DNA of 35,392 bases, taken from assembly GCA_943326025.2 (NCBI GenBank), contig CALPRR020000001.1:1-35392 (forward strand). The letters run 5' to 3'. Of this stretch, positions 1,034 through 28,934 are shown one piece after another. Origin of the DNA: Candidatus Kuenenia stuttgartensis (lineage in GTDB: Bacteria; Bacteroidota; Bacteroidia; Flavobacteriales_D; Crocinitomicaceae). The translations under genes were made by a program, and so were the position numbers. The notes beneath the pieces were generated by a model. It did not search any database. It worked only from the letters and a program-made list of their open reading frames with translations, and had not been told where the DNA came from. Within the stretch, counting starts at the first letter, position 1. The number at the start of each line of letters is the position of its first letter.

Positions 1034-1062
1034 AGAGTCATAAGAGATTATGACTCTTTTTT
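1034..1062 (+). terminator. Rho-independent terminator for the PKD/T9SS gene
   Basis: A perfect 10-bp stem AGAGTCATAA (1034-1043) pairs with TTATGACTCT (1048-1057) around the loop GAGA, followed by TTTTT. It overlaps the stop codon of the convergent gene. Confidence 0.7.
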
Positions 1063-3286
1063 ATTCATGACCTTCTTCTAATTGTTGATTTGTAGATGAA
1101 AAATACTTAATACTAATTTCATTTTCTTCTGTCCCATATATATACTCTACTCTGGCACAGATTTTTCCTTCTAATTCTGTATTTACTAAATCCCCTATTA
1201 AATTTCTTGCCTCAATATTTTTAACAAGTTGATTTGGATAATAACTTATTGATATTGAAGCAACACTATCAATTGTTTCTGTAAATATTTTCTTGCAATT
1301 TTTATATTGTTCTTTTATTAAATTCCCGTTTGTATCGTGTTCAAAAACATAAATAGCAACATTATTGTTATCCAATTTTAATTTTTTCTTTTTAGAATAA
1401 AAACTTTTTTCTTTTAATAAGAAACCATCATAAACAAATCTATAAATAGCAAAACCAAAACGATCCTCCATTAATTTATTTTTTGAATTATAATATGCTG
1501 TTTCTATTAAATTACCAGATAAATCGTAATTATTTAACTCTTTATAAAAGCAGGTAATACAGGTAATATTCGTTATCGGATTTTCAAATTCATCCAATAG
1601 AATTCTTTCAACAAGTAAATTTGATGAATTATACTTAAGTTTTACTACTGCAATACTATCTAAATTAAGGCAAAGTTTTAGGTTTTGATCAAAATATCGA
1701 ATCTCTCTTTCTAAATTTAAAGTATCATCAACACTAATTGTTTTTTTAGCATAACCTTTTGCCGGTATGAATTTTAATTGATTTTTCACATCAAAATATC
1801 TCTCCTCAACTAAAATATCATTCAAATTATAATTATATTCTACTTTATGAAATCCTTCAGGTAATTCCATTGGTTTAGATAAACTATCAAACCAACATTC
1901 CCTTATAATTAATGAATTATCATTTAACATTACACGATATTTAATAGCTATACCATCTAACTCTGCATCTTCATCAATACCTACTAAATTTAAATTTTTA
2001 TCCAAAGCTTTAATTAATTTTTTACCAAAACCTTCATCATCATAGACATATTCAAATTCATATCGATAGACGCCTGAATAATCTTCAGTTGGATCATTAT
2101 TTTCATTCAAATAATATTCAGCATTAGTAAAATCATATGAATCAAATTCATAAACAATTTTATGTACACCATGAGAATTGTTTGTTGGCTGTTGATTAAT
2201 ACCAAAATAGCTTTCTTCAGAAATCCTACCCATTTCATGATATTTAAATCTTTGACCTGATAAACCATTTTTATTAATAACTGATTTTTTATTTAAGCCA
2301 TAATTAAAAATCGTAATTAAATTATTTAATGAATCATAGGTATATTCAATTCTAATTATAGAGTCATCAATAAAAAAAGGCTCATTTTTGTAATTGTAAA
2401 AATTAACTGAAAGTACATTTCCTCTATTGTCATTGAAATAATTTATTATTGAGGGTTTATTTGTAGAGTTCGTAATATCATTTTCAGTATAAGATAGAAT
2501 TTCACTAAACTTGTTTTGATTTATTATTTGATTAACATAACCATTTGAGTCATAATTAAACGTCTTAAAATAAATAGAAGGCTCTATTTCAAAAAGTTCA
2601 TTTAATCGGTTATATTTTTTTTCAAAAATCAAATTTCCAATTTCATTGTATAAATGTTCCATTTTAACTACTTCTTTACTTTCAACTTCATCAAGAAATT
2701 CGAATATTTCCTCGGTAAGTTGATTTTTTGAATTTAGCTTAACACTTACTGTTTTATTTTTTCCTTCTTGAAAATAAAACGGGTGATTTCCAGAAACATT
2801 CATTGATATCAATTCTCCTTGTTCATTGTAAATATATATTACTTGGCCTTGTTCTTCAAAAAACTCATCATCAAATTCAGATACTTCGTATGTATAAATA
2901 GATGAAACTCGATTTTTATCATCGTATTTTACTTGCCAATAAAATGAATTAGGTTCATATAAATTATCTAAATCCTCACCTTCAATATATGACTGAATTT
3001 GAACTTCAGATTCTTTATAGAGATATGATAGACGAATCCCATTTAAGATTGAACTGTAAACACCGACCGCATCATCCATTTTACAACTTTTAACATCATA
3101 TAAACGATTAATCGTATCATATTCAAAAACATAGTAATTCATGGTCATTGCTTCATCTTCTGTTATTGGATACATACCTTCGCATTTCCCATAAGCATCC
3201 ATGAAGGCATTTCTGTAATATTTTTTTGATTGCGCCTGAAGGCTTAAAACCAAAAGAAAAAAAGATAAACTAACTAATAATTTCAT
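1061..3286 (-). CDS. Secreted 741-aa protein made of degenerate YD/Rhs-like beta-hairpin repeats; function unknown
   Basis: The signal peptide is MKLLVSLSFFLLVLSLQAQ. Many short repeats have the form Y-x-Y/F-D-x-x-G-N-L-I (YNEQGELISM, YDSNGYVNQI, NDNRGNVLSV, YDSLNNLITI, YDLSGNLIETAYYN, HDTNGNLIKEQY). No recognisable toxin or Rhs-core domain is present. Confidence 0.6.
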   Translation of the reverse strand: MKLLVSLSFFLLVLSLQAQSKKYYRNAFMDAYGKCEGMYPITEDEAMTMNYYVFEYDTINRLYDVKSCKMDDAVGVYSSILNGIRLSYLYKESEVQIQSYIEGEDLDNLYEPNSFYWQVKYDDKNRVSSIYTYEVSEFDDEFFEEQGQVIYIYNEQGELISMNVSGNHPFYFQEGKNKTVSVKLNSKNQLTEEIFEFLDEVESKEVVKMEHLYNEIGNLIFEKKYNRLNELFEIEPSIYFKTFNYDSNGYVNQIINQNKFSEILSYTENDITNSTNKPSIINYFNDNRGNVLSVNFYNYKNEPFFIDDSIIRIEYTYDSLNNLITIFNYGLNKKSVINKNGLSGQRFKYHEMGRISEESYFGINQQPTNNSHGVHKIVYEFDSYDFTNAEYYLNENNDPTEDYSGVYRYEFEYVYDDEGFGKKLIKALDKNLNLVGIDEDAELDGIAIKYRVMLNDNSLIIRECWFDSLSKPMELPEGFHKVEYNYNLNDILVEERYFDVKNQLKFIPAKGYAKKTISVDDTLNLEREIRYFDQNLKLCLNLDSIAVVKLKYNSSNLLVERILLDEFENPITNITCITCFYKELNNYDLSGNLIETAYYNSKNKLMEDRFGFAIYRFVYDGFLLKEKSFYSKKKKLKLDNNNVAIYVFEHDTNGNLIKEQYKNCKKIFTETIDSVASISISYYPNQLVKNIEARNLIGDLVNTELEGKICARVEYIYGTEENEISIKYFSSTNQQLEEGHE

Positions 3287-3482: not shown

Positions 3483-4592
3483 ATGAAAACAAAGCATATT
3501 TTATATTCAATTTTAATTTTTTCAATATTAGTTGGTTGTTCAAGAAAAAGAAAAGAATCAAATCATTTTGAAACTAATTCCAATGTAAAATATGCGAAAA
3601 ACTTCAGTATTAAAATCAATAAAAATTATATTGAATTCCATCTATTAAATCCTGAAACGAATGAAATTGAAAAAAAATTCGCTTTAATCAAAAATGATTC
3701 TATAAAAGTACCTGAAGGATTCACTCCAATTTTAGTTCCAATAAAATCTACAATCACATTATCTAGTACTCACATAGGAATGCTTTCAAAATTAAATGCA
3801 TGTAATCTTGTTAAAGGTATTTCAAATCATAATTATGTATATGAACCAAGTATACTTGAACGTTATAAAAAAGGAGAAGTAATTGAATTGGGAGATGAAA
3901 ACTCGATATCAGTTGAATCTATTATTCGATCACAATCAGATCTATTGATTTATAGTGGATTCGGCAAAGAATTTCCTCATCAAGAACAATTAGAAAAACT
4001 CGGAACAATATGTTTAGCAAACTATGATTGGAAAGAAAATCATCCATTAGGTAAAGCAGAATGGATTAAAGTTTTTGGTTATTTAACAGGGAAAGAAGAA
4101 ATTGCTTCTATTTACTTTAAGGCGATAGAAAAGGATTATTTAAGTCTGAAAAAAATGGCTTCAAAACTAAAGGATACTCCTAGCCTTTTTAGTGGGAATT
4201 TAGTCGGCGATATTTGGTATTCTCCAGCTGGAGAAAGTTATAATGCTATTTTATTTAAAGATGCTAAAGGTGATTACAAATATGCTAATTCAAAAGGAAT
4301 AGGTAGTATTGAAAATAGCTTTGAACAAATATTTAGTGACAATTTAAATACACAATATTGGTTTAATCCAGGAATTGAATCGAAGCATGATTTATTAAAA
4401 AGTCAGCCAAAATTCAAATTATTTCAAGCTTATAAAGAAAATAAAATTTTCAGTTACACATTTTCTGGCAATGAATTTTGGGAAAGAAGCGCCGTTGAAC
4501 CAAATCATGTTTTATCAGATTTAATTCGAATTTTACATCCTGAACTTAAATTAAAAAATAAGCTTTATTTTTACAGAACTTTAAGCAAATAA
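3483..4592 (+). CDS. ABC transporter substrate-binding lipoprotein of the BtuF/FhuD type (cluster A: iron-siderophore, heme or cobalamin)
   Basis: A lipoprotein signal ends in LVGCS. It is the first gene of an SBP-permease-ATPase operon, with a 1-nt TAATG overlap to the permease. Length and sequence style fit the periplasmic binding protein family paired with FecCD permeases. Confidence 0.75.
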   Translation: MKTKHILYSILIFSILVGCSRKRKESNHFETNSNVKYAKNFSIKINKNYIEFHLLNPETNEIEKKFALIKNDSIKVPEGFTPILVPIKSTITLSSTHIGMLSKLNACNLVKGISNHNYVYEPSILERYKKGEVIELGDENSISVESIIRSQSDLLIYSGFGKEFPHQEQLEKLGTICLANYDWKENHPLGKAEWIKVFGYLTGKEEIASIYFKAIEKDYLSLKKMASKLKDTPSLFSGNLVGDIWYSPAGESYNAILFKDAKGDYKYANSKGIGSIENSFEQIFSDNLNTQYWFNPGIESKHDLLKSQPKFKLFQAYKENKIFSYTFSGNEFWERSAVEPNHVLSDLIRILHPELKLKNKLYFYRTLSK

Positions 4593-5590
4593 TGACTGTA
4601 GCACGTAAAAACAAATTCATTCTTATATCTTTGATTCTTTTGTTTCCAATTTTATGCGGAATACATTTGTTTGTAGGTGAAATATCAGTTTCATTTTCTG
4701 ATTTTTGGAATTCAGTATTGGATTTTAATAACGAAAATACCTCACAAACAATTATTCGAGAATTTAGAATACCACGACTTGTAATGGGTATTTTAGCTGG
4801 TAGTGGGCTTTCGATTGCTGGTTTATTCATGCAAACAATGTTTAACAATCCATTGGCTGGTCCTTATATTTTAGGAATAAATTCAGGATCAAGTCTTTTT
4901 GTAGCTTTTAGTGTAATGACAGGTATTCCATTTTTAACAACTGATCTTGGAACTATCTCAAGTGCATTAATTGGTGCTTTTATTTTTGGATTAATAATCC
5001 TTTCTTTTTCTTATTTAGTTAAATCACATATTTCTCTTTTATTGATTGGTATAATGCTTGGAAGTTTTACAAGTGCTATTGTTTCAATCTTACAAACTAT
5101 GAGCGAACCCAATCAACTGAAACTTTTTACTATGTGGACAATGGGATCGTTGCAGCAAGTCGAGTTTTCTGAATTACCGCTAATCGTATTTTTTTTTATT
5201 GTTGGAATTTCATTTTCACTTTTCATGATAAAACCGTTAAACGCACTTGTTATTGGTGAAAGTCAAGCATTAACATTAGGAATTCATGTAAAATATGTGC
5301 GACTTGCACTTATCTTGATAACAGCCATTTTAACTGGAATTATTACTGCTTATTGTGGACCAATAGCATTTGTTGGTCTTGCTGTACCAAACATTGTAAA
5401 AATGATTTTTAAAACTCAATCTCACTTAACATTATTAATTGGTTGTTTCTTAATTGGTAGTTTTTTCATGATTACATGTGATATATTAATTCAATTATTA
5501 GAAAGTACTATTCATATACCGATCAATGCATTAACTTCTATCATCGGAGCACCATTTGTGATCGTAATTGTTCTAAAACGACTAGCATGA
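4592..5590 (+). CDS. FecCD/BtuC-family ABC transporter permease
   Basis: It is a polytopic membrane protein with FecCD-like segments (RIPRLVMGILAGSGLSIAGLFMQTMFNNPLAGPYILGINSG and GPIAFVGLAVPNIVK). An ATGA overlap links it to the downstream ATPase. Confidence 0.85.
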   Translation: MTVARKNKFILISLILLFPILCGIHLFVGEISVSFSDFWNSVLDFNNENTSQTIIREFRIPRLVMGILAGSGLSIAGLFMQTMFNNPLAGPYILGINSGSSLFVAFSVMTGIPFLTTDLGTISSALIGAFIFGLIILSFSYLVKSHISLLLIGIMLGSFTSAIVSILQTMSEPNQLKLFTMWTMGSLQQVEFSELPLIVFFFIVGISFSLFMIKPLNALVIGESQALTLGIHVKYVRLALILITAILTGIITAYCGPIAFVGLAVPNIVKMIFKTQSHLTLLIGCFLIGSFFMITCDILIQLLESTIHIPINALTSIIGAPFVIVIVLKRLA

Positions 5591-6294
5591 TTGAGTTAAA
5601 AGAAATTGAAATAGGATATAAAAAACACTTGTTTTCTATTGATAACATTCAATTATCGAAAGGGAAAGTATACTCACTTATAGGTGCAAATGGTGCTGGG
5701 AAAACTACTTTTTTAAAAACTTTACAAGGAAATCATTCAACAATAAAAGGTAAAATTTTAATCAACAAAACGGATGTTCAACTTTTTGAACGCCAGAAGT
5801 TATCCCAAACAATTGCATTTGTTAATTCTAAATTTGATGGAGTAGACTATTTAAGAGTATCAGATTATGTAGGACTAGGTAGAACACCCTATACCAATGC
5901 ACTAGGAAGATTATCTGAAAAAGACCTTAAAATTATTGAAAATTCTTTAGACGAATTGAACATTAAACACCTCTCAAATTTTTTCACAACTAAACTTAGT
6001 GATGGAGAACGTCAATTAGCTGCTATTGCAAGAGCAATATCACAAGAAACAGATATTATTATATTAGATGAGCCTACTGCATTTTTAGATTATGCAAATA
6101 GAAAATTAGTAATGAAGGAAATGAAAAAAATTGCTTCAGAACATGAAAAATGTATCATTATTTCTTCTCACGATTTAGATTTATGTCTTGAAAGTGAAAC
6201 AGAAATTTTAGTCATAAATAAAAAAACTAAATCATTAGAACATTATATTTCAAATTCATTATCTAAAGAAAGTTTAATACAAATTGGTTTTTAA
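5587..6294 (+). CDS. ABC transporter ATP-binding protein (FepC/BtuD-like)
   Basis: It has a Walker A motif GANGAGKTT, an ABC signature LSDGERQ, a Walker B motif IIILDEPTAFLD and an H-loop SSHD. Confidence 0.9.
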   Translation: MIELKEIEIGYKKHLFSIDNIQLSKGKVYSLIGANGAGKTTFLKTLQGNHSTIKGKILINKTDVQLFERQKLSQTIAFVNSKFDGVDYLRVSDYVGLGRTPYTNALGRLSEKDLKIIENSLDELNIKHLSNFFTTKLSDGERQLAAIARAISQETDIIILDEPTAFLDYANRKLVMKEMKKIASEHEKCIIISSHDLDLCLESETEILVINKKTKSLEHYISNSLSKESLIQIGF

Positions 6295-20249: not shown

Positions 20250-22145
20250 TTACTGAATAATCACTTTAGTTGATTTCTTTCTATTATTTCTATGAATAAT
20301 TAAATAATAAACTCCTTTAGGAATAGAACCAAAAGTATTCATTTCATGATGGTGATTTGAAATTTTATCCGGCAACAATTCTTCTGAATGAAATATTTTC
20401 CCAGCTAAATCAACCAATTGAATTGTTAACGGTTCCTCATTCTTTAGATCATTTTCAGAAAAATGAATCTTAAAGTTTCCATTTTCTGATGGATTTGGAA
20501 AAACATTCATAGCTAATTCTATAAGCTCATTTTCAACCGACTTTATTGTCGAATGAGTATACCTTCCATTAAAATCAACTTGTTTTAAACGATAGTATGA
20601 AATTCCCTCAACTATTTTTTCGTCTGTAAACAAATAATTAGAAGTCTGAGTTGAATTACCCTTCCCTTTAATTTGACCTATTTCATAAAAATCCTTTCCA
20701 TTTTCTGATTTCTCAATAGAAAAATAATCATTGTTTGTTTCTGAAAAAGTTGTCCAAAACACATCAACTTGATCGTAATTCAATTCAGTATTAAAGCTCG
20801 ATAATTCAACAGGTAAAACAATTACTGATGAAAAATGATACCCTAAAGTATAATAACCATCGTTTTGTAAATTTACATTCGAAAATGAAACCATATCTCC
20901 AGTAACACTATTTGCTGTTGCTATTTCGGTCCAAGAAGTTCCTATTGAATTTGAAGATCTATATAAAAGGACATAATCACCTGCAACTCCCATTGAATTA
21001 ACAGCCATACCACTATTGGAAACATCAAATTCAACGGTTCCATTTAATACTGAAGAAGTATTTGTTACGTCGAAATACCAAACTCTTTGCCATCTCGTAT
21101 TTGAAGTTCCTGTCATACCTGCAACGTCCGTGGACATTTCGCTATTGTAGGCTGAACCGTGTCCGATCAATAAATAATCTCCAACGTCTAAAACAGATGT
21201 TGAAGTTATCCCTAAACCTTTTGTTACTGAAGAAGAAAAACTTGTATTTGAACCAACAACTGAACCAGGCATTATTGTATCACTTCCTATACCAGCAACA
21301 TCTTTGTCAAAATTAATTAAACTATTATCACCAGCGTATTTATCCTCTGAAGCAAGAGCAATATTGTATTTTGCAGATAAATAATTATTCACGATAATTC
21401 TAGAAGCTTTATTTAATGCAGTTCTATAACCTATTACTTCAGCAATATAACCACCAAATGGTCTTGGGTCGTTTAAATCCGTTGAACCTATAATTAATGG
21501 TGAATTATTATTCGGAACTGACGTATTCGTTTCTGAAGCTCTTACATCTAAATTATTTCCATTATATAATTTGGATCTAGAAGCAGAACTCAACGTTCCA
21601 TCATATACAACATTTATTAAATAATTATTATTTGGACTATAAGTTGTCGTACCATTAAATCTATTATCATTTGTTTGAATATCGACATAAAATTTATTTG
21701 AAGTATAATAAAACAACATGAAAGATTGTTCAATTCCTACATTAGTTCTTTTAGAAACAATAGATCTAGCACCTCCATCTAATGTCAAAGGTCTTGAAAT
21801 GGTAAAAAAAGTATAACCAGAAGTATTATCCAATGTAGAAGCATCAGCTCCAACTAACTTATCATTCGTCCCATTGTTATTATCGAAAAGAATTGCTGGA
21901 TTTCCATTAATAAGATTGGTTGTGTAAATTGGTTGCTTGTTATTCGTTGCTTGAGAAACGGAATTTGAATTACCTGATTGATCGGTCCAATTTGAAACTG
22001 CTGTACCATTTGAAGTAGTATTTGTACCTGCATCAGCTCTTAACCACAACATATTGTTCGTACTCGTACCTACTCCACCTGGTCCTGTTTGACCAAAAGA
22101 GCAATAGTATACCGAAGTATATAGTAGCAAGATAACAAACTTCAT
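20250..22145 (-). CDS. Secreted LamG/concanavalin-A-like lectin domain protein with a T9SS type A (Por_Secre_tail) C-terminal sorting domain
   Basis: I prefer the ATG at 22145 (MKFVILLLYTSVYYCSFGQ signal) over the TTG at 22160. The N-terminal region WLRADAG..GTAVSNWTDQSGNSN..NKQPIY is typical of LamG-type T9SS cargo. The C-terminus is FPNPSENGNFKIHF..GKIFHSEE..IPKGVYYLIIH..KVIIQ. Confidence 0.8.
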   Translation of the reverse strand: MKFVILLLYTSVYYCSFGQTGPGGVGTSTNNMLWLRADAGTNTTSNGTAVSNWTDQSGNSNSVSQATNNKQPIYTTNLINGNPAILFDNNNGTNDKLVGADASTLDNTSGYTFFTISRPLTLDGGARSIVSKRTNVGIEQSFMLFYYTSNKFYVDIQTNDNRFNGTTTYSPNNNYLINVVYDGTLSSASRSKLYNGNNLDVRASETNTSVPNNNSPLIIGSTDLNDPRPFGGYIAEVIGYRTALNKASRIIVNNYLSAKYNIALASEDKYAGDNSLINFDKDVAGIGSDTIMPGSVVGSNTSFSSSVTKGLGITSTSVLDVGDYLLIGHGSAYNSEMSTDVAGMTGTSNTRWQRVWYFDVTNTSSVLNGTVEFDVSNSGMAVNSMGVAGDYVLLYRSSNSIGTSWTEIATANSVTGDMVSFSNVNLQNDGYYTLGYHFSSVIVLPVELSSFNTELNYDQVDVFWTTFSETNNDYFSIEKSENGKDFYEIGQIKGKGNSTQTSNYLFTDEKIVEGISYYRLKQVDFNGRYTHSTIKSVENELIELAMNVFPNPSENGNFKIHFSENDLKNEEPLTIQLVDLAGKIFHSEELLPDKISNHHHEMNTFGSIPKGVYYLIIHRNNRKKSTKVIIQ

Positions 22146-22216
22146 AGTTACAAACAGCAATTAATTCAAAAGAGAAAAACACCTTTTGTTTAATACAGTA
22201 AATAATTTTAGCATTG

Positions 22217-22224
22217 CAAAAATA
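22217..22224 (-). promoter_or_regulatory. Candidate -7 box TATTTTTG for the LamG/T9SS gene
   Basis: This is an exact TAnnTTTG match on the minus strand, about 70 nt upstream of the ATG at 22145. Confidence 0.3.
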
Positions 22225-22389
22225 TAAATTATTTAATAATGATCTAAAAATTAAATATTGCAAGTCCTAATGAAGAATCTAAATGACTGAAAAACAAACA
22301 AAGTAAGTGGCGTATTACTGTTTTTTTGTGGGGAAAAGATGGGGTTTTATTCTAAATAATTACAAAAATAAAAACATCAAATAAATAAC

Positions 22390-22441
22390 CTGGTAGTAGA
22401 AAATCCATTTTCATAGATATATTTTTTAATTCTACTACCAG
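22390..22441 (-). terminator. Long-stem hairpin immediately downstream of the 1032-aa gene; probable end of its operon
   Basis: A perfect 12-bp stem CTGGTAGTAGAA (22390-22401) pairs with TTCTACTACCAG (22430-22441) around a 28-nt loop. It starts 11 nt after the stop codon and U-rich sequence follows on the minus strand. Confidence 0.5.
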
Positions 22442-22452
22442 ATTTATTTTAA

Positions 22453-25400
22453 TTATTCAACAACTAATTTTTGTACAAAACTTCCTTTTACAGAGTTGAT
22501 TTTAACAAAATAAATTCCTGCTGATAAATCAGTTGAAATAGATGTTGTATTTGTTAAATTATCTGTAATTGATTTTACCTGTTTTCCGATTTCGTTGAAA
22601 ATAACGATTGAAGTTAAAGTTAATGTTTCATCCATAACTTTTACAGTAAACATACCATTTGAAGGATTCGGATAAATAGACAACCCATTTTCAACTGTTG
22701 AAATTGAATTTAAACCTAAAGTAGTGAAACCTACAATTGCTGATGAACTTGAAGTACATCCATTTGTTGTAACTGTAACAGAATAATCTCCATTAGCTGT
22801 TACAGTGTATGACTGATTCGTTGCATTTTGAATTGCAGAACCATTTAAATACCATTGATTTCCTGAAGCAACATTTGTGCTTAATAAAGTACCATTTGCA
22901 TATAAAACTGGTGCAGTTGGAATTGGATTAATTGTCATTTCAATTGATTGAGCGTTCACCGTATCAATAGTAGCACAAGTTAAACTAGAAATTAAATTAC
23001 AAGTAACAATATCATTGTCATTTAAAGTTGAAATTATTAATGTATCTGAATTCTCAGACAATAGATTCCCATTAACAAACCATTCATAAAAAGGAGTTGT
23101 ACCTGCATTTATTCCATCAGCAACTAATATCACTTCAGAACCAGCACAGGCTGTATTGTTTGCTAAAATAGAAACAGAAGGAATTAATGCAGAATTTACA
23201 TTTATCGCTACAATCGCTGAAGTGTCATCTAAATCAGATATACATGATTCACTTGAAGTTAATACACAATATACTTCATCACCATTTACTAACGTATCTA
23301 CAACTATCGAAGTTGATGTTGAAACACTTTCTCCGTTGATAAACCACTCAAATGTTGGTGTATTTCCTGCGTATGTAGTTGATTGTGAAAAAGTAACTTC
23401 TTGACCAGAACAAATTGTTGTAATATCAGCTGAAACATTAATAGAAGGAGTTACAGGGGACGCTCCTGAAATTGTCATTGAATCTGTATGCGAAATAGAC
23501 AATGCATCTGAGACAGTCACAAAATAAGTACCTTGAAGAAGGTTATTGATTGAAGCTGTTGTCGCACCATTACTCCATAAATAAGTATATGGAGCAGTTC
23601 CACCAGTTGCAACTGCAGATAAAGATCCGTCATTCGCATTGATACATGAAGGAGAAGATGGATAATTGATTGCTACATTAACTGGAAGTTCAGAAAGACC
23701 ATTTGAATACAAACAGTTATTTTCTGTCGTTACAAAAACTCGAGAAGTAACAAATGAAATTTTATTTACTGCCGTATAACTTGGTAAATTGAATTGGTTT
23801 CCACCTGCTTCCCACGTTTGACCATGATCACTTGTTGCAATTAAACCACCTCTATAACTTGCAAAAACATAACCTCCAAAAGTACCCATTGCTTGAATAG
23901 CATCTCCATCCAAACCTAATAAAGTAGTATGAGAAATTGAAGTAGGTGAAGTAGCTGACCAATTAAAATCAGAAATATCAGCAACAAACACTCCGTCATG
24001 ATGCGTTCCAACATAAATTTTTGTCCCTAATGTCGTTATAGCAGTTGTATGATCGGTCGGTAAATTCGTTGTTATATTTGTCCAATTACCTGACGCTTCA
24101 TTTCTTGAGTGAACTCCTCCTCCATGGATAGCAATTACAACTTTATCTCCATATGAAGAAAATGCAACATCTTCTAAATTAGTGCCTAAATTCCCTTGAA
24201 TTGAAGTCCATGCACCTGTTCCATTAGATTGGTAAATTGTACCTGTTGCATCAAAAATGTACACATAATTTGATGTAGCAAACACTTTTTTTACAGATAA
24301 TTCAAACAATCCAATATTAAACTCATTCCAAACAGCACCTGTATCATTACTCACAAAAACACCTGCATTTTCAGTAACAGCAAATAATTTTGTTCCTTTA
24401 AACGTTAAATCATTTACATGTAAATAATCTGTTAAACCATTATTTGCAGCAGTATAAGAAGTTGCTAAATTTTTACTTACAAATACCCCTTTTTCAGTAG
24501 CTGCAACAATTACTTGATCTCCACTTGTTGCCATTGAATAGGTCACCTGATTGTTGTACCCCGTATTATTCGCTATCCAACTGATTGAAGAATTTGATGT
24601 TTTATAGATGCCATCTTTGTAAACACCTGCAATTAAACTTGTGTTATACGCTGCAACAATATTTACATTCATATTAGAGGTAAATCCGGTATTAATAGTT
24701 GACCAAGAAATTGATCCTGTAACTGAAGTATAAACTCCATTATCTGTTGCTAAATACCAATTTGTACCATTATTTGTAATTGAATTAATAGCTAAATTCA
24801 AAATTAATCCTGAAGTTACTGCAACATATACAGGCGATGTTGTGGTACTAGCTGAAGCTAATACAAAAACACCATTGTGATTTTTTACTAATATTTCATT
24901 TGTAGTACCATTGTAAGATATTGCAGTTGTATTTGATATGTTTAATGTATTTGCATCATTTAAACCTAACCAAGATAAACCATTATCATCAGAATAATAA
25001 ACTCCTTTATTTTCAGCTGTCAATATTAAACGTGCACCTGCTTTTACAATACCCGTAATATTTGTTCCAGCAAAAGGTAAACTTGTAATTTCACTCCAAT
25101 TTGAACCATTATCAATTGTTCTGAAAATTTTTCCATTGGAAGTTCCTACAACTAATGATGTTGCATCAAATGAAGCGATAGCTGTCGTATTTTTGCTTGT
25201 CAATCCATTTTGAACTTTTTCCCAGTATCTGTCAGAACCAACATAACCAGTAAAACGGAAAACGCCACTATCAACTGTTGCTGCAAATAAATTTGATCCT
25301 GCAAAATCTAACGCAGCAATTTTACCACTTTTCAAACCAACAGGTTTACAGCTCCATCCTACTAAAGAAGCATTTGTATTTACATAAACACCTCCATTTT

Positions 25401-25551
25401 CAGTTCCAAAATAAACCAATCCACCTCCTTGAGTTGAACAGGTGATTTTACCACTACCGTATGGACCTTTAGATCCAAAGTGTGCGAATGAGATTGTTGA
25501 AACATATAAAAATGCAATCAACATCATTGACTTTAAAGTATTATTTTTCAT
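22453..25551 (-). CDS. Large secreted protein: Asp-box (BNR-like) beta-propeller region, one SprB-type repeat, three Ig-like modules and a T9SS type A C-terminal sorting domain
   Basis: It has a signal peptide. Asp-box motifs are present (TIDNGSNWSEI, SDDNGLSWLGL, SNDTGAVWNEF, SDHGQTWEAG) plus degenerate copies. The SprB-like repeat is CINANDGSLSAVATGGTAPYTYLWSNGATT..GTYFVTVSDA. Three modules share C..(F/Y)EWF.NG..C. The C-terminus is IYPNPSNGMFTVKV..GIYFVKINS..FVQKLVVE. Confidence 0.8.
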   Translation of the reverse strand: MKNNTLKSMMLIAFLYVSTISFAHFGSKGPYGSGKITCSTQGGGLVYFGTENGGVYVNTNASLVGWSCKPVGLKSGKIAALDFAGSNLFAATVDSGVFRFTGYVGSDRYWEKVQNGLTSKNTTAIASFDATSLVVGTSNGKIFRTIDNGSNWSEITSLPFAGTNITGIVKAGARLILTAENKGVYYSDDNGLSWLGLNDANTLNISNTTAISYNGTTNEILVKNHNGVFVLASASTTTSPVYVAVTSGLILNLAINSITNNGTNWYLATDNGVYTSVTGSISWSTINTGFTSNMNVNIVAAYNTSLIAGVYKDGIYKTSNSSISWIANNTGYNNQVTYSMATSGDQVIVAATEKGVFVSKNLATSYTAANNGLTDYLHVNDLTFKGTKLFAVTENAGVFVSNDTGAVWNEFNIGLFELSVKKVFATSNYVYIFDATGTIYQSNGTGAWTSIQGNLGTNLEDVAFSSYGDKVVIAIHGGGVHSRNEASGNWTNITTNLPTDHTTAITTLGTKIYVGTHHDGVFVADISDFNWSATSPTSISHTTLLGLDGDAIQAMGTFGGYVFASYRGGLIATSDHGQTWEAGGNQFNLPSYTAVNKISFVTSRVFVTTENNCLYSNGLSELPVNVAINYPSSPSCINANDGSLSAVATGGTAPYTYLWSNGATTASINNLLQGTYFVTVSDALSISHTDSMTISGASPVTPSINVSADITTICSGQEVTFSQSTTYAGNTPTFEWFINGESVSTSTSIVVDTLVNGDEVYCVLTSSESCISDLDDTSAIVAINVNSALIPSVSILANNTACAGSEVILVADGINAGTTPFYEWFVNGNLLSENSDTLIISTLNDNDIVTCNLISSLTCATIDTVNAQSIEMTINPIPTAPVLYANGTLLSTNVASGNQWYLNGSAIQNATNQSYTVTANGDYSVTVTTNGCTSSSSAIVGFTTLGLNSISTVENGLSIYPNPSNGMFTVKVMDETLTLTSIVIFNEIGKQVKSITDNLTNTTSISTDLSAGIYFVKINSVKGSFVQKLVVE

Positions 25552-25570
25552 TATTGTTTTTAAATTATTA

Positions 25571-25954
25571 TTAATTATTTTGAGCTCCTTGCTCTATCCA
25601 TTTTAAAATCAAATCCAATTTACATTGTTCTAACACGCCATTTGGTGGCATTGGATTATTAACGGATTTCATCGATGAATACAACAAACTTGAACTCGGA
25701 TTTGTGGTGTTTATATAACCACTTTGACTGTTTAATAACTGCTGATATGAAACACTTGACACTAAATTTAAATTACCCTTCGGATTTGTTCCTGAATGGC
25801 AACCTGATGTTGTACAATTCTCATTGAAAATTGGTTGTACATCATTTTTATAAGAAACAGTATCGGGTAAATCACATTTCTCTTTCTTCTTTTTACATGA
25901 CGTAAAATGCAAGAACGAAATCATAATTACTATGAGTGTAAAAAATTTTATCAT
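25571..25954 (-). CDS. Small lipoprotein with a PSCyt1-like (planctomycete cytochrome c-like) domain carrying a non-canonical C-x4-C-H motif
   Basis: A signal/lipobox ends in ..HFTSC. The sequence VQPIFNENCTTSGCHSGTNPKGNLNLVS...NPSSSLLYSSM...NPMPPNGVLEQCKLDLILKWIEQGA follows the PSCyt1 pattern (C..CH....KGGL.L......PG.P..S.L......MPP...L......I..WI..GA), but the Cys pair is spaced CTTSGCH (nt 25796-25816). Confidence 0.6.
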   Translation of the reverse strand: MIKFFTLIVIMISFLHFTSCKKKKEKCDLPDTVSYKNDVQPIFNENCTTSGCHSGTNPKGNLNLVSSVSYQQLLNSQSGYINTTNPSSSLLYSSMKSVNNPMPPNGVLEQCKLDLILKWIEQGAQNN

Positions 25955-25957
25955 CAG

Positions 25958-26746
25958 TTATTCGTATCTAAACAAATTTGGAATGTTATTTTTAATCATT
26001 GTTGCAATTGAAGAACTATTGTCTTGAGCTGAAGACACATTCAAATTTGAAGGATTTGTTAAATCAATTCCATCAAACAATTTTGAATAATCGACAATCA
26101 TGTGCACATAATTCACGTTGTCTTTTAAAACTGTAAAATTTTGAATTGGCATTTCAACAGAAACATAATTCGTATTTGTTCCAATTTTATAACAAAATGG
26201 TACTGGTGTTCCATTCATAGCATTTGTAGTATCAATAGCTCCTTGAACATTCATAAATACATAACCATCTGGTTGTGCTGATGAACTAAACCACATTTGT
26301 TGCATTTTAAGAATGATTGAATCTGCAGATAAAGTTGGAGATAATGCATTTGTCGTTGCGTCTAAACCAACTTTAAATCTTACTGACTTATAATTCCCAA
26401 CTGGAACATCACCAACTGTCAGCCCTTCAGATTCAAACAATTTTATTACATTTTTTTGTAAATCAACTGTTGAGCCATCTAACTTAACCAATTGTATTCC
26501 TGAGATGTAAAATTGAGCACGACTTAATGAAATTATTCTTCCTGCATAAGTAGTCATATCAATATTATATGCATCAACTTCTGTATCCTCAATGTAAGTA
26601 TGCAAATGAAACATTAAAGTTCCTTTTGCTACGTTAGATTGATCATTATTATTGGATTGATCATTATTGTTTTCATCTTTTTTACAAGAAAGAGCTATGA
26701 AAGCAGCTACAACTATAATAGATAATTTTTTGATTATACTTTTCAT
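25958..26746 (-). CDS. MbnP-like lipoprotein (putative copper-binding periplasmic or surface protein)
   Basis: The lipobox is ALSCKKDENNN. Sequence landmarks recalled for the MbnP family are present: RAQFYISGIQLVKLDGS, YKSVRFKVGLDA, MQQMWFSS..DGYVFMNVQG and DYSKLFDGIDL. The assignment is by eye only. Confidence 0.55.
   Translation of the reverse strand: MKSIIKKLSIIVVAAFIALSCKKDENNNDQSNNNDQSNVAKGTLMFHLHTYIEDTEVDAYNIDMTTYAGRIISLSRAQFYISGIQLVKLDGSTVDLQKNVIKLFESEGLTVGDVPVGNYKSVRFKVGLDATTNALSPTLSADSIILKMQQMWFSSSAQPDGYVFMNVQGAIDTTNAMNGTPVPFCYKIGTNTNYVSVEMPIQNFTVLKDNVNYVHMIVDYSKLFDGIDLTNPSNLNVSSAQDNSSSIATMIKNNIPNLFRYE
26637..26672. repeat. Imperfect 18-nt tandem duplication in the linker of the MbnP-like gene
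   Basis: GATTGATCATTATTATTG is followed directly by GATTGATCATTATTGTTT; the first 14 nt are identical. It encodes the duplicated linker NNNDQSNNNDQSN just after the lipobox. Confidence 0.7.
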
Positions 26747-26756
26747 TTAATAAAAT

Positions 26757-27827
26757 TTAAAATGAATAACTTATTGAACCTATTAATGAATTTTTAGATT
26801 TATTTTGAATTCCATCAACATACTGATAAATAGGGAAACCATACTCAAAATTTAGTTTAACATTTTCAAAGAAACCCTTCGGAAATTGATACGATAAACC
26901 AACTAACGTACTTATTGATTTCAACCCATAATTGATTGTATTTGCAGATGGTTCATTGAACCTATAAATTGTTTTATCATACCCTTGAATCACATCAATT
27001 AACTTACCCTCAAATCTAATAGAACTACTAAAGTTATTCCACCAATTATAAGCTCCCCATACATTTAAATAATATTCGTTACCTAATCGATAGCCAATAT
27101 TATTTGTATTTAAACGCATTACAGAACTTCCTTGAAAGCTATAGGCAAATCCATTTGATTGTTTAATGTATGTCAAACTCGGTAATAGTTCAAAAGAGCC
27201 TGAACCCATTTGCATCATATAAGCAAATCGCTCATTAGGGTATAACATATCGTTGGACAATCCTTTCATTTGAATTGAACCAGTTGGAATACTTCCTCCT
27301 AAGCCTAAAATCAATTGACTAGATGTATTTTTTACAATACCATACAATAAATGAAGTTTTATATCGCCAAATCCAGATGTTAGCATAGTCATATCTGCAT
27401 TATTTGTCATTTCCATACCTGGCATTGAATGATCGTGACTCATCGTTGGAACCATGGTCATTCCCATAGAAGTCTGATTGTAATGCAACATTAACATTCC
27501 TGTAAAACGTTCAGAAAAACCATACATTCCCATTAACATATGCATTTGCATGTTCATTTTACTAGAACTCATGATATAATCATTGAATACATCCATTTCA
27601 TCAATTGGATTGTTTCCAGAAATCAACGTTGAATTATTCATTTGCATATATCGATACGATAACATCCATTCTTTCTTTGGATGAACATGACTAATCATAA
27701 CTCCCGCAGGAGTTAGATTTCTCAAACAATGACATGAATGATCACAACTAATAGTATCTTGACCAAATAAATTAATAGATAACAATGTTCCAAGTAACAG
27801 AACATTCCATTTTTGTTTAAAAAACAT
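26757..27827 (-). CDS. Met/His-rich outer-membrane beta-barrel 'transporter' (MetA-pathway/Phenol_MetA_deg-like OMP)
   Basis: It has a signal peptide. CDHSCHC sits at the mature N-terminus (nt 27726-27746). The segment GVMISHVHPKKEWMLSYRYMQMN is present. Residues 86-148 contain 18 Met and 4 His (nt 27384-27572; for example KMNMQMHMLMGM and MGMTMVPTMSHDHSMPGMEMTNNADMTM). The rest has alternating beta-strands, and the C-terminus ends ..SISYSF with an aromatic residue. Confidence 0.65.
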   Translation of the reverse strand: MFFKQKWNVLLLGTLLSINLFGQDTISCDHSCHCLRNLTPAGVMISHVHPKKEWMLSYRYMQMNNSTLISGNNPIDEMDVFNDYIMSSSKMNMQMHMLMGMYGFSERFTGMLMLHYNQTSMGMTMVPTMSHDHSMPGMEMTNNADMTMLTSGFGDIKLHLLYGIVKNTSSQLILGLGGSIPTGSIQMKGLSNDMLYPNERFAYMMQMGSGSFELLPSLTYIKQSNGFAYSFQGSSVMRLNTNNIGYRLGNEYYLNVWGAYNWWNNFSSSIRFEGKLIDVIQGYDKTIYRFNEPSANTINYGLKSISTLVGLSYQFPKGFFENVKLNFEYGFPIYQYVDGIQNKSKNSLIGSISYSF

Positions 27828-27852
27828 TTATTGAATTTTAATTTGTTTTATT

Positions 27853-27868
27853 GAAGATTTAAATCTTC
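27853..27868. repeat. Perfect 16-bp palindrome GAAGATTTAAATCTTC in the spacer between the small membrane-protein gene and the OMP gene
   Basis: It was read directly from the sequence. It lies 26-41 nt upstream of the OMP ATG (27827). It could be an operator for a dimeric regulator or an intercistronic RNA hairpin. Confidence 0.6.
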
Positions 27869-27917
27869 CAAGAAATCAGATTGTATTTTTATAAAAAAAT
27901 CAATCACTTAAAACAAA

Positions 27918-28304
27918 TTAAACTCTCGGAGGCTGAAAAACTGAGTTTAAATCACTCTGAATTATACTTTTATTGTATTCAAAAACATCTTTTTTCTTAG
28001 CTTTCAAAAAATCGCTTTCAAAAAAAGCATACGTTTCAACTGAAATTTGATCAGTAATTACTTCTATTTTCTCTTTTGATGATGAGGATTTATTTTCTTT
28101 TTGATCTTGCTTTTTTAACTGCTTTGCCAAATGACATTTACCATTACATTTCAATATCGGTTTAGACTTGTTGACACATAGATTATTCGCTATGTATTCT
28201 TTATTGATAATGTAATCTGTATATATAATGAATTTACCCAATGCTTGCATAACAAAAGCACTGATTACAACAAAAGCAATTATTGTATGTAAATTCTTTT
28301 TCAC
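27918..28304 (-). CDS. Small membrane-anchored protein with a C-x9-C-x3-C-H motif; function unknown
   Basis: It has a GTG start and one N-terminal TM helix (IIAFVVISAFVMQALGKFII). It then reads YIANNLCVNKSKPILKCNGKCHLAKQL (nt 28131-28178), followed by a Lys/Ser/Glu-rich linker and a short C-terminal domain. This is the first gene of the cluster. Confidence 0.55.
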   Translation of the reverse strand: MKKNLHTIIAFVVISAFVMQALGKFIIYTDYIINKEYIANNLCVNKSKPILKCNGKCHLAKQLKKQDQKENKSSSSKEKIEVITDQISVETYAFFESDFLKAKKKDVFEYNKSIIQSDLNSVFQPPRV

Positions 28305-28308
28305 GACT

Positions 28309-28316
28309 CAAAATTA
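28309..28316 (-). promoter_or_regulatory. -7 promoter box TAATTTTG, 4 nt upstream of the GTG at 28304
   Basis: This is an exact TAnnTTTG match on the minus strand, with the same box-N4-start geometry as at 3471 and 32039. Confidence 0.35.
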
Positions 28317-28388: not shown

Positions 28389-28934
28389 TTAATTCATTTT
28401 ATACTTTTTAAAAAAAGCATCCCAGTTCCAAATGAAATTCCCCATAACCTCATCCATTCTTTTTAAGAACAAAGGATTTGGAGCTTGCATTCTTCTGAAA
28501 TAATCATCTTGAAATTCATTCAATTTGTATTTTTCAAAAACAGCTTTAGACATTCCGTAAATCATATTTTTAGAAGGATGATTTATTCTAGAAATAAAGC
28601 TTTGGTATTCTCTTACGATTTGTTGAAAATCATTTCCAGACATTTCGTACATTTTACCTAATTTATTAAAAATAATCTGTTCAACTCTTTCAGCTTGATC
28701 AGATTCAAATATATTCTCTAAAAAAGATAAATTACCTACAATTACAATTAATGCAAATTCTCCGTTTTGTTTTGAATCAATTTCTGGAGATTTAACAAAT
28801 GCCACATCTTCATTAATCAATTCAGCAACCTCTACAAATCCATTATCAACTACATCCAATAATGCATTAACAAATATATTCGCAACTTGTTCGTCTGATA
28901 ATTTTCTTTTTAATAATGTTCCAAGTAGAGCCAT
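28389..28934 (-). CDS. Hypothetical cytoplasmic protein, 181 aa
   Basis: It is a clean ORF with no signal peptide and no recognisable motif. A TAAATTTG box (28958-28965) lies upstream, with 23 nt between the box and the ATG. Confidence 0.5.
   Translation of the reverse strand: MALLGTLLKRKLSDEQVANIFVNALLDVVDNGFVEVAELINEDVAFVKSPEIDSKQNGEFALIVIVGNLSFLENIFESDQAERVEQIIFNKLGKMYEMSGNDFQQIVREYQSFISRINHPSKNMIYGMSKAVFEKYKLNEFQDDYFRRMQAPNPLFLKRMDEVMGNFIWNWDAFFKKYKMN

Follow-up and report, generated by a model that had tools for sequence, protein, structure and literature searches.

A methionine-ladder outer-membrane barrel and an MbnP-fold lipoprotein in a conserved Bacteroidota operon: a candidate TonB-independent copper-handling system

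We analyzed a stretch of 35,392 nucleotides (nt) of contig CALPRR020000001.1 (assembly GCA_943326025.2), deposited as Candidatus Kuenenia stuttgartensis and placed by GTDB in the Crocinitomicaceae (Bacteroidota); this whole stretch is called the window below. Its minus strand carries five adjacent genes, g1 to g5, in which an earlier reading of the DNA letters (the original prediction) had seen a candidate envelope gene cluster for handling a metal, possibly copper. The genes encode a three-Cys membrane protein (g1), a Met-rich outer-membrane beta-barrel (g2), an MbnP-fold lipoprotein (g3), a class-I cytochrome-c-like lipoprotein (g4) and a large cargo protein of a type IX secretion system (T9SS; g5). 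The gene order recurs far beyond chance, being found by sequence searches in 79 loci over several Bacteroidota orders, and conserved residues that could serve as soft-metal ligands are present at every predicted level of the envelope, from the surface protein g5 to the membrane protein g1. We propose that the operon encodes a copper-handling relay across the envelope, most likely for TonB-independent copper acquisition, and give this reading about an even chance of being correct. We infer the identity of the metal and the direction of transport from ligand chemistry and gene context.

Conservation of the gene order across Bacteroidota

Using an alignment of the barrel protein as query, we surveyed one genome per GTDB species. 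This yielded 318 matches confirmed by tblastn, from which 79 loci were retained. Neighboring genes were found by open reading frame (ORF) calling and iterated hidden Markov model searches, and an adjacency was counted only where the flanking sequence sufficed. By content, all 79 loci belong to Bacteroidota, comprising Flavobacteriales/Crocinitomicaceae, Cytophagales, Chitinophagales, Sphingobacteriales and metagenome-assembled genomes (MAGs) resembling Saprospiraceae. The g1 gene lies directly upstream of the barrel gene in 65/71 loci and the MbnP-like g3 directly downstream of it in 65/68. g4 comes next after g3 in 45/65 loci and g5 next after g4 in 26/60. Members of the five families are almost always on the same strand. 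When 942 neighbor ORFs were clustered all against all, without bias toward any family, the top five families were g2, g1, g3, g4 and g5. The original prediction had named conservation of the gene neighborhood among relatives as a check on the cluster, and the adjacencies above bear it out. Because g5 is absent from over half of the loci, we class it, on gene content, as an accessory component.

The combination had not been recognized as a described system when the cluster was first pointed out. Our own literature search likewise found no description of the five-gene system; most subscription journals lay outside its coverage, and hence this is not conclusive.

The barrel protein g2 carries a conserved methionine ladder

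The AlphaFold2 (AF2) model of g2 is a barrel of 12 strands (predicted local distance difference test (pLDDT) score 80, predicted TM-score (pTM) 0.76). Its top Foldseek match in the PDB was the COG4313 channel Pput2725 (4RL8; E = 2e-13), followed by FapF. At least 793 homologues of g2 were found. In Pfam, the window copy matched nothing at E ≤ 0.1, PF13557 (Phenol_MetA_deg) included, and there was no match to a Plug or TonB_dep_Rec domain. PF13557 was matched by 7 of 20 relatives, with a best E value of 2.4e-8. The link to PF13557 that the original prediction had proposed to check holds for some relatives and agrees with the 4RL8 fold match, but does not extend to the window copy itself. Note that searches of g2 and g3 against PDB sequences, with single sequences or profiles, returned nothing useful, and that the links of g2 to 4RL8 and of g3 to 7L6G (see below) come from fold search only.

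The accumulation of 18 Met and 4 His within 63 residues (positions 86 to 148) and the CDHSCHC sequence from residue 28, both noted earlier, were confirmed. Overall, Met makes up 7.8% of g2, compared to 3.2% in background ORFs. In an alignment of 77 sequences, Met occupies 16 positions in at least 80% of the sequences (residues 44, 61, 63, 65, 91, 93, 95, 97, 99, 101, 111, 113, 121, 123, 125 and 205). Also conserved are H47, H49 and H96 as well as C28, C32 and C34. On strands beta1 to beta3, every ladder Met falls on one parity. The columns of this parity have an entropy of 0.67-1.21 bits, whereas those of the opposite parity are variable and hydrophobic (1.55-2.25 bits). The same pattern separates a conserved polar lumen face from a variable hydrophobic lipid face on strands beta6 to beta12. 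Because the Met parity is of low entropy, like the lumen face, the ladder would line the lumen of the barrel; this argument uses sequence parity, not coordinates.

The segment preceding beta1 (residues 38-53; LTPAGVMISHVHPKxEW, with M44, H47 and H49) is among the most conserved parts of g2 and was modeled with moderate confidence (block pLDDT 52-70). In the COG4313 structure, the segment before strand 1 sits in the barrel lumen. Model confidence was low for the Cys-rich mature N-terminus (residues 19-35) and for residues 129-143 of a Met/His-rich loop (residues 126-144), both of which are probably disordered.

g3 represents a distinct branch of the MbnP family

g3 matched the Pfam MbnP model (PF20243) with 79 bits (cutoff 27), and this model was carried by 120/120 g3 homologues among the matches listed. 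The AF2 model of g3 (pLDDT 88) had a sole significant PDB match, MbnP itself (7L6G; E = 6e-8, TM ~0.5). In contrast, g3 fails the NCBIfam equivalog model TIGR04052 (MbnP_like_WxW), scoring 24 bits against a cutoff of 140. The description as an MbnP-like lipoprotein is thus sound at the level of family and fold, but g3 lacks the WxW motif and has a different set of invariant His and Met residues. These are H47, H49, M151 and H215, in addition to the lipobox Cys21; W152 is conserved in at least 90% of sequences. At the position of M151-W152-F153, the MbnH-linked paralogues have M-x-W-x-W with both Trp residues invariant. The two groups are clearly related (hhalign probability 99.9%), yet H47, H49 and H215 of g3 are not conserved in the WxW paralogues. 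The copper ligands of characterized MbnP are His, Met, water and a kynurenine that MbnH makes from a Trp of the WxW motif. We failed to map g3 residues onto these ligands, the profile of the WxW paralogues matching 7L6G only weakly (E = 2.4). Because it lacks WxW and has its own H47/H49/H215 set, g3 appears to form a distinct branch of the MbnP family, with a putative metal site that would not need MbnH.

In Bacteroidota lipoproteins, the residues following the lipid-modified Cys provide the signal for surface export. In both g3 and g4 these residues are Lys-rich and not acidic, which suggests that both lipoproteins face the periplasm.

g4 is a cytochrome-like lipoprotein with an unusual CX4CH motif

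The invariant residues of g4 are the lipobox Cys20 and C47, C52 and H53, corresponding to the CTTSGCH sequence that had been picked out originally. This is a CX4CH motif, not the canonical CXXCH heme-attachment motif. The PSCyt1 family (PF07635) assignment stands for the family, with 19/27 orthologues matching at E ≤ 0.01, but the window copy remained below the cutoff. Against the PDB, the profile of g4 orthologues matched the heme domain of hydrazine synthase alpha (E = 1.7e-4) and, over its full length, cytochrome c6 (E = 2.5e-3). In these alignments CX4CH falls on CXXCH with a two-residue insertion, and a PMPP sequence falls on the axial-Met region. Among 47 orthologues the spacing is CX4CH in 41, CXXCH in 3 and CX5CH in 3. 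Variation of the spacing around a fixed CH, together with the cytochrome-like profile, favors CX4CH as a heme site but does not prove it. Profile searches had been named at the outset as a further check on the cluster. They returned MbnP similarity for g3 itself and PSCyt1 and barrel similarity at the family level.

The exported protein g5 is predicted to begin with an invariant histidine

The description of g5 as a T9SS cargo with a beta-propeller was well founded. g5 consists of a signal peptide, a BNR/Asp-box beta-propeller (residues ~24-625), a SprB/PKD/Ig stalk and a type-A C-terminal sorting domain, which was matched at residues 959-1031 by PF18962 (48 bits) and TIGR04183 (44 bits), in agreement with the definition of a T9SS type-A cargo. 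Conservation is limited to residues 1-625 and the C-terminal domain, the stalk being variable. The only similarity to an enzyme family was a weak partial match to a BNR-type glycosylhydrolase model (68 bits, cutoff 175).

The most distinctive feature of g5 had been missed in the original prediction. Its signal peptide ends in an AxA-type site, so that the predicted mature protein (A|HFGSKGPYG) starts with His24 of the precursor. All 29 operon-linked orthologues have a signal peptide, AxA and then H[FW]GxKGP. An exhaustive search of 1.84 billion representatives returned 20,723 BNR-propeller relatives of g5. Of the collinear representatives with intact N-termini, 37/38 have His at position +1, down to ~31% identity, and one has Arg. 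The invariant N-terminal His of the predicted mature g5 is a new observation.

g1 is a three-Cys, probably membrane-anchored protein without a recognized family

At its N-terminus, g1 has a hydrophobic helix that lacks a canonical cleavage site; a linker rich in Lys and Glu comes next. These features suggest a membrane-anchored periplasmic protein. Invariant in alignments of operon-linked copies are C43, C53 and C57 (C-x9-C-x3-C), G55 and the C-terminal P125-P126 (F-x-P-P). The Cys motif and Pro-Pro were also kept in 21/21 additional paralogues. The His of the originally described C-x9-C-x3-C-H motif is present in the window, but the residue after the third Cys varies among relatives (H/Y/C/F/Q), and the motif is accordingly shortened to C-x9-C-x3-C. 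For the same reason, a heme-like CXXXCH motif in g1 was rejected. Neither the window copy nor 28 family members matched a family in Pfam or NCBIfam, and isolated matches of g1 to COA8, CopL and TonB were insignificant.

In nine loci, a second g1 paralogue with C-x9-C-x3-C and Pro-Pro retained lies directly 5' of the g5 propeller gene (L014:9927-10301, L019:3003-3371, L024:9367-9765, and L025, L046, L049, L053, L056 and L059; L numbers denote related loci). From this arrangement, proteins of the g1 type seem to have more than one exported partner.

Transcriptional organization

The layout of five co-directional minus-strand genes with short gaps was exact as first described, by comparison with the ORF list (Table 1). 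The intergenic gaps in the window are 90 nt (g1-g2), 10 nt (g2-g3), 3 nt (g3-g4) and 19 nt (g4-g5); median gaps across the related loci are 86 nt, 11 nt and -1 nt for the first three. A consensus scan found no terminator inside the five-gene cluster, as had been claimed. Beyond g5 there is a terminator-like hairpin formed by the inverted repeat 22387-22401/22430-22444, with a 14-bp stem and a predicted RNA folding energy of -24 kcal/mol (z = -3.9).

Scanning for sigma-70 promoters was uninformative (51 sites versus 45 expected), and the Bacteroidetes-type -7 motif TAnnTTTG was used instead. In 66 related loci, 32 of 41 occurrences of the motif upstream of g1 are at most 30 nt from the g1 start, while it was found in just 3/49 g1-g2 spacers and there without positional preference. 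This clustering near the g1 start and rarity in the spacers points to a single promoter, upstream of g1. Because TAnnTTTG is not enriched over the window (57 matches versus 66 expected), the support comes from the position of the motif rather than from its count. A k-mer search for a common operator upstream of g1 returned just promoter-like and A/T-rich words. Judged by gene layout and these signals, the five genes form one predicted operon, with a promoter just 5' of g1 and a terminator after g5.

The perfect 16-bp palindrome reported for the g1-g2 spacer was found there. The whole spacer of the window has a predicted RNA folding energy of -15.1 kcal/mol (z = -2.25), and 36% of 64 loci have a hairpin in the g1-g2 spacer whose arms reach 7 bp or more, compared to 10.6% of shuffled sequences. 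The hairpin sequences vary by lineage; in the close relative L002, the outer arms of the palindrome are retained and its center is changed. We therefore rejected the palindrome as a conserved protein operator. Because the hairpin sequences are lineage-specific, the palindrome most probably forms a stem-loop in the RNA of the operon, and this stem-loop perhaps sets the ratio of g1 to g2 expression. An Rfam scan of the region found no RNA family, the lone match being a chance snoRNA (E = 0.6).

Genomic surroundings in the window and in related loci

We compared the 27 ORFs of at least 100 amino acids (aa) in the window with Pfam. Outside the operon, the genes are housekeeping or unrelated (aroQ, xerD-like, rimO-like, SNF2 helicase, tgt, lptF/G, gidB, pckA and a FecCD-type ABC transporter). 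No CCP_MauG/MbnH, multicopper oxidase, P-type ATPase, RND pump, metal regulator or recognizable TonB-dependent receptor was found in the window.

The absence of MbnH and of a TonB-dependent receptor, on which the original prediction had built its idea of an MbnP-type module with different partners, therefore applies across the window and to this lineage, but not to all relatives. In 17 related loci we found a gene for a di-heme CCP_MauG/MbnH-like protein (PF03150, 176 bits; TIGR04039, 209 bits with a cutoff of 363). It follows a WxW MbnP paralogue, not g3, and precedes a g4 paralogue that mostly has CXXCH. This canonical MbnP(WxW)-MbnH-cytochrome module lies directly downstream of the operon in many relatives. 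A TonB-dependent receptor is found by the operon in 8 loci and a DCC1-like thiol-disulfide oxidoreductase in 5.

Further families recur beside the operon. A secreted HMA-domain protein (~175 aa, with GLTCSxC and a conserved Cys-containing C-terminal extension) is present in 13 loci, not including the window, and in 10 of these its gene is divergent and located upstream of g1. In 11 loci its partner is a secreted His-rich protein of ~330 aa (SNHHG..., HTHNG, AHDEAEP) that has no Pfam family and gave an hhalign probability of 24% against the g2 barrel. Nine loci with downstream room encode a lipoprotein of ~490 aa in which a g4-like CX4CH domain (CATSGCH) is joined to a YVTN beta-propeller, usually replacing g5; these fusion proteins are weakly similar both to lactonase-type NosZ and to hydrazine synthase beta. 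A family of ~129-aa lipoproteins, in which an HH motif is conserved and a YYLYGVGYD segment is present, has no Pfam match. Its hhalign probability against the N-terminal H-x-H strand region of g3 was 88% over 49 columns, suggesting a resemblance to this region.

Table 1. Coordinates of the operon, its predicted signals and recurrent neighbor genes
Feature	Location	Strand	Description
g1	27918-28304	minus	128 aa, three-Cys membrane protein; GTG start (ORF list)
g2	26757-27827	minus	356 aa, outer-membrane beta-barrel
g3	25958-26746	minus	262 aa, MbnP-fold lipoprotein
g4	25571-25954	minus	127 aa, class-I cytochrome-c-like lipoprotein
g5	22453-25551	minus	1032 aa, T9SS cargo protein
Bacteroidetes-type -7 promoter motif	28309-28316	minus	TAATTTTG; 5 nt upstream of the g1 start codon
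Perfect 16-bp palindrome	27853-27868	minus	GAAGATTTAAATCTTC; inside the 90-nt g1-g2 spacer
Terminator-like hairpin and U-rich tract	22360-22444	minus	starts 9 nt past the g5 stop codon
HMA-domain protein	L020:1400-1921, L021:6912-7451, L039:6729-7262		examples; 10 other loci
His-rich ~330-aa protein	L034:12402-13382, L063:5952-6953		examples; 12 other loci
~490-aa fusion lipoprotein	L028:2812-4305, L035:10931-12406, L051:10358-11854		examples; others
~129-aa lipoprotein	L028:2406-2783, L034:11973-12362, L079:9831-10220		examples; 13 other loci

Directly 5' of g1 in the window is a 181-aa ORF without a family (28389-28934, minus strand). Because it is kept in the four closest relatives only (L001, L002, L004 and L037), we place it outside the conserved operon. 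Past the terminator lies a second T9SS cargo gene (20250-22160, minus strand; 636 aa, TTG start) that matched Por_Secre_tail only. TAnnTTTG motifs of its own lie at 22363-22370 and 22217-22224, and the gene is apparently transcribed separately. A 741-aa ORF without a Pfam match (1061-3286, minus strand) is divergent to a Peripla_BP_2/FecCD/ABC_tran operon (3483-6294, plus strand), which encodes a transporter of the type used for siderophores or cobalamin; the 741-aa protein could be a divergent outer-membrane receptor.

In some genomes or contigs, the operon is present twice in full or accompanied by tandem extras, such as a second barrel gene or further MbnP-like genes (L041 and L047, both on contig JAPLEZ010000145.1; L014, L020, L024, L039 and L045). 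This hints at paralogous systems that differ in specificity or regulation. In addition, several MAG records with the operon (L003, L015, L055, L068 and others) bear implausible labels, among them Actinomyces viscosus, Candidatus Planktophila lacus, Akkermansia, Saccharibacteria and Chryseobacterium gleum, which points to mislabeled bins or contaminant contigs in public records.

A proposed copper relay and its alternatives

In the relay that we favor, the T9SS would export g5 to the cell surface or into the medium, where its free N-terminal His would form part of a copper-capture site. The ~14 invariant Met residues on three adjacent strands of g2, together with Met44, His47 and His49, would then provide a track of thioethers, and Cu(I) would be passed along it through exchange of ligands. 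In the periplasm, g3 would accept the metal at His47/His49/Met151(-Trp152)/His215 without a kynurenine made by MbnH, and g4 would give or take an electron, coupling Cu(II) and Cu(I). Membrane-anchored g1, with three Cys and a long charged linker, would be the inner acceptor or a tether. Heme attachment to g4, the spatial proximity of the g3 ligands and each transfer of the metal are, like the metal itself, what we infer. Thioether-only tracks are typical of Cu(I)/Ag(I) handling, as in Ctr1, CusF/CusA and the tails of CopB. We favor copper because the MbnP homology, the MbnP/MbnH modules and the HMA neighbors agree with such a track, and uptake because the surroundings are housekeeping, the window holds no oxidase, pump, ATPase or regulator, and one component faces outward.

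A number of findings weigh against this proposal. The operon encodes no inner-membrane importer, and the characterized COG4313 channels are thought to carry hydrophobic molecules. The Pfam barrel model is not reached by the window g2, nor the PSCyt1 threshold by the window g4 (18.1 bits, cutoff 22), whose CX4CH motif is unusual for heme attachment and could alternatively be a metal site. g3 lacks the WxW/kynurenine site needed for copper binding in characterized MbnP; its own H47/H49/M151/H215 site is hypothetical, and the spatial clustering of these residues is presumed. In g5, His24 is the sole invariant His of the conserved region. Because a second invariant His is missing and the fold is a beta-propeller, we rejected g5 as a histidine brace. 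Moreover, g5 is missing from more than half of the loci with room for it, HMA-domain neighbors are as typical of detoxification as of uptake, and we identified no cultured model organism with the locus. The complete chain, from the His of a T9SS propeller through a Met-lined barrel to an MbnP variant that needs no kynurenine, a cytochrome with CX4CH and a three-Cys protein, acting together as an undescribed TonB-independent uptake route, is proposed tentatively and is rather doubtful as a whole.

The same ligands could instead serve in detoxification or buffering of copper or silver, with the barrel exporting Cu(I), g3 and g1 sequestering it and g4 oxidizing it to the less toxic Cu(II). PcoB, which functions in copper efflux, is likewise a 12-stranded barrel with His/Met-rich segments, and a track of Met only would conduct Cu(I) equally in either direction. 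The lack of an importer from the operon and the secreted HMA-domain proteins that adjoin it in 13 loci are also in line with detoxification. However, no multicopper oxidase, P-type ATPase, RND pump or copper-sensing regulator accompanies the operon in the window, where the neighbors are housekeeping genes, and no CopB/PcoB family match was obtained at E ≤ 0.1. Acquisition better fits the His of the T9SS propeller, the TonB receptors (8 loci) and the MbnP/MbnH modules (17 loci), and we consider detoxification unlikely.

Two further explanations assign the central role to a single component. If g5 were a copper-dependent oxidative enzyme at the cell surface, g1 to g4 would supply its copper and electrons. 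This would account for the mature N-terminal His in 37/38 family representatives, for the sharing of an operon with a cytochrome-like protein and a copper-protein homologue, and for the g1 paralogue directly 5' of g5 in nine loci. It is nevertheless improbable, given that the g1-g2-g3 core occurs without g5 in over half of the loci with room, that other lineages substitute a periplasmic cytochrome-YVTN propeller, that g5 has no second invariant His, and that its enzyme-family similarity amounts to the partial glycosylhydrolase match far below cutoff. Very improbable, in our view, is a system unrelated to metals, in which a small molecule, hydrophobic or containing sulfur, would enter through a COG4313-type channel and be processed in the periplasm by the lipoproteins and the cytochrome. 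The nearest structure to g2 is indeed a COG4313 channel tied to hydrophobic uptake, with detergent in its lumen; Met side chains are themselves hydrophobic, and Phenol_MetA_deg is matched by 7/20 relatives. Yet 16 positions of g2 are specifically Met and not just hydrophobic, in addition to the conserved His and Cys residues, and g3 has a copper-protein fold with an invariant His/Met set of its own. HMA and MbnH neighbors recur, while no catabolic enzymes were found among the recurrent neighbor families.

Significance and comparison with known systems

Bacterial copper acquisition is poorly understood, and the operon is present in hundreds of Bacteroidota species, as judged from the 318 confirmed matches in species representatives. 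Bacteroidota dominate communities of freshwater, soil and marine particles, and copper enzymes are required by the many N2O reducers and aerobic degraders that the phylum contains. If the acquisition reading is correct, g2 would be a passive copper channel built on a methionine ladder, g3 a member of an MbnP branch able to bind metal with no need for kynurenine made by MbnH, and the uncurated three-Cys protein family would be given a function. Type IX secretion would be linked to metal nutrition, with g5 as the first T9SS cargo with a role in metal acquisition. Every component of this widespread system is uncharacterized, and the hypothesis is directly testable.

According to a 2026 paper in JBC, the few known copper-specific outer-membrane transporters are all TonB-dependent; if the uptake reading is true, g2 would be the first passive copper-specific import channel of the outer membrane. 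It shares with the TonB-dependent copper importers (OprC/NosA and the CrtA/BfrG family) the proposed role in copper entry across the outer membrane, but it lacks a plug domain, a 22-stranded barrel and a TonB box. For this reason, transport through g2 would either be passive or draw its driving force from binding or redox trapping. The TonB-dependent receptor found in 8 related loci is a separate nearby gene, not g2. Compared with the methanobactin system MbnP/MbnH/MbnT, g3 shares the MbnP fold and Pfam model, the periplasmic location and a gene position beside an outer-membrane transporter, and a true MbnP(WxW)-MbnH pair lies directly downstream in many relatives. In contrast, g3 has no WxW, fails TIGR04052 and carries its own H-x-H/M-W/H set; the window has no MbnH, and a small 12-stranded barrel takes the place of a TonB-dependent receptor as the putative transporter.

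Among other barrels, PcoB/CopB (PDB 7PGE) resembles g2 in its 12 strands, in its His/Met-rich segments and in the energy-independent passage of copper in which it is implicated and which is proposed for g2. In g2, however, the Met residues are invariant and located on strands rather than in a disordered tail, there is no oxidase partner in the window, and g2 has no sequence match to the CopB family. In fold, g2 is closest to the COG4313/Phenol_MetA_deg channels (Pput2725 (4RL8), TcpY and SphA), whose PF13557 model some of its relatives match. Unlike the role proposed for g2, the characterized members are linked to hydrophobic organic substrates. We know of no COG4313 channel for which a Met ladder, a Cys-rich N-terminus or partners related to copper proteins have been described.

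Stepwise transfer of Cu(I) between periplasmic Met sites (with His/Trp) is a feature of CusF/CusCBA, where efflux is driven by an RND pump. M151-W152 of g3 recalls the Met/Trp environment of CusF, but no Cus component is present in the window. With the histidine-brace proteins (lytic polysaccharide monooxygenases (LPMOs), CopC and X325/Bim1), g5 shares the predicted mature His1, but neither the second His nor the beta-sandwich fold. Bim1 is an LPMO-like surface protein that reportedly acts together with the Ctr1 Met-motif Cu(I) channel, as is said to have been found by Garcia-Santamarina and colleagues in 2020. The resemblance to the relay proposed here is one of analogy only: an N-terminal His is carried by a surface protein, which supplies a Cu(I) conduit that is lined by Met and independent of energy, and a reduction step is needed. 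There is no homology. Ctr1 is a trimer of helical build, Bim1 has a beta-sandwich fold and a complete histidine brace, and g5 is a propeller with one invariant His. If correct, the proposed relay would be a convergent bacterial counterpart of the fungal Bim1-Ctr1 route.

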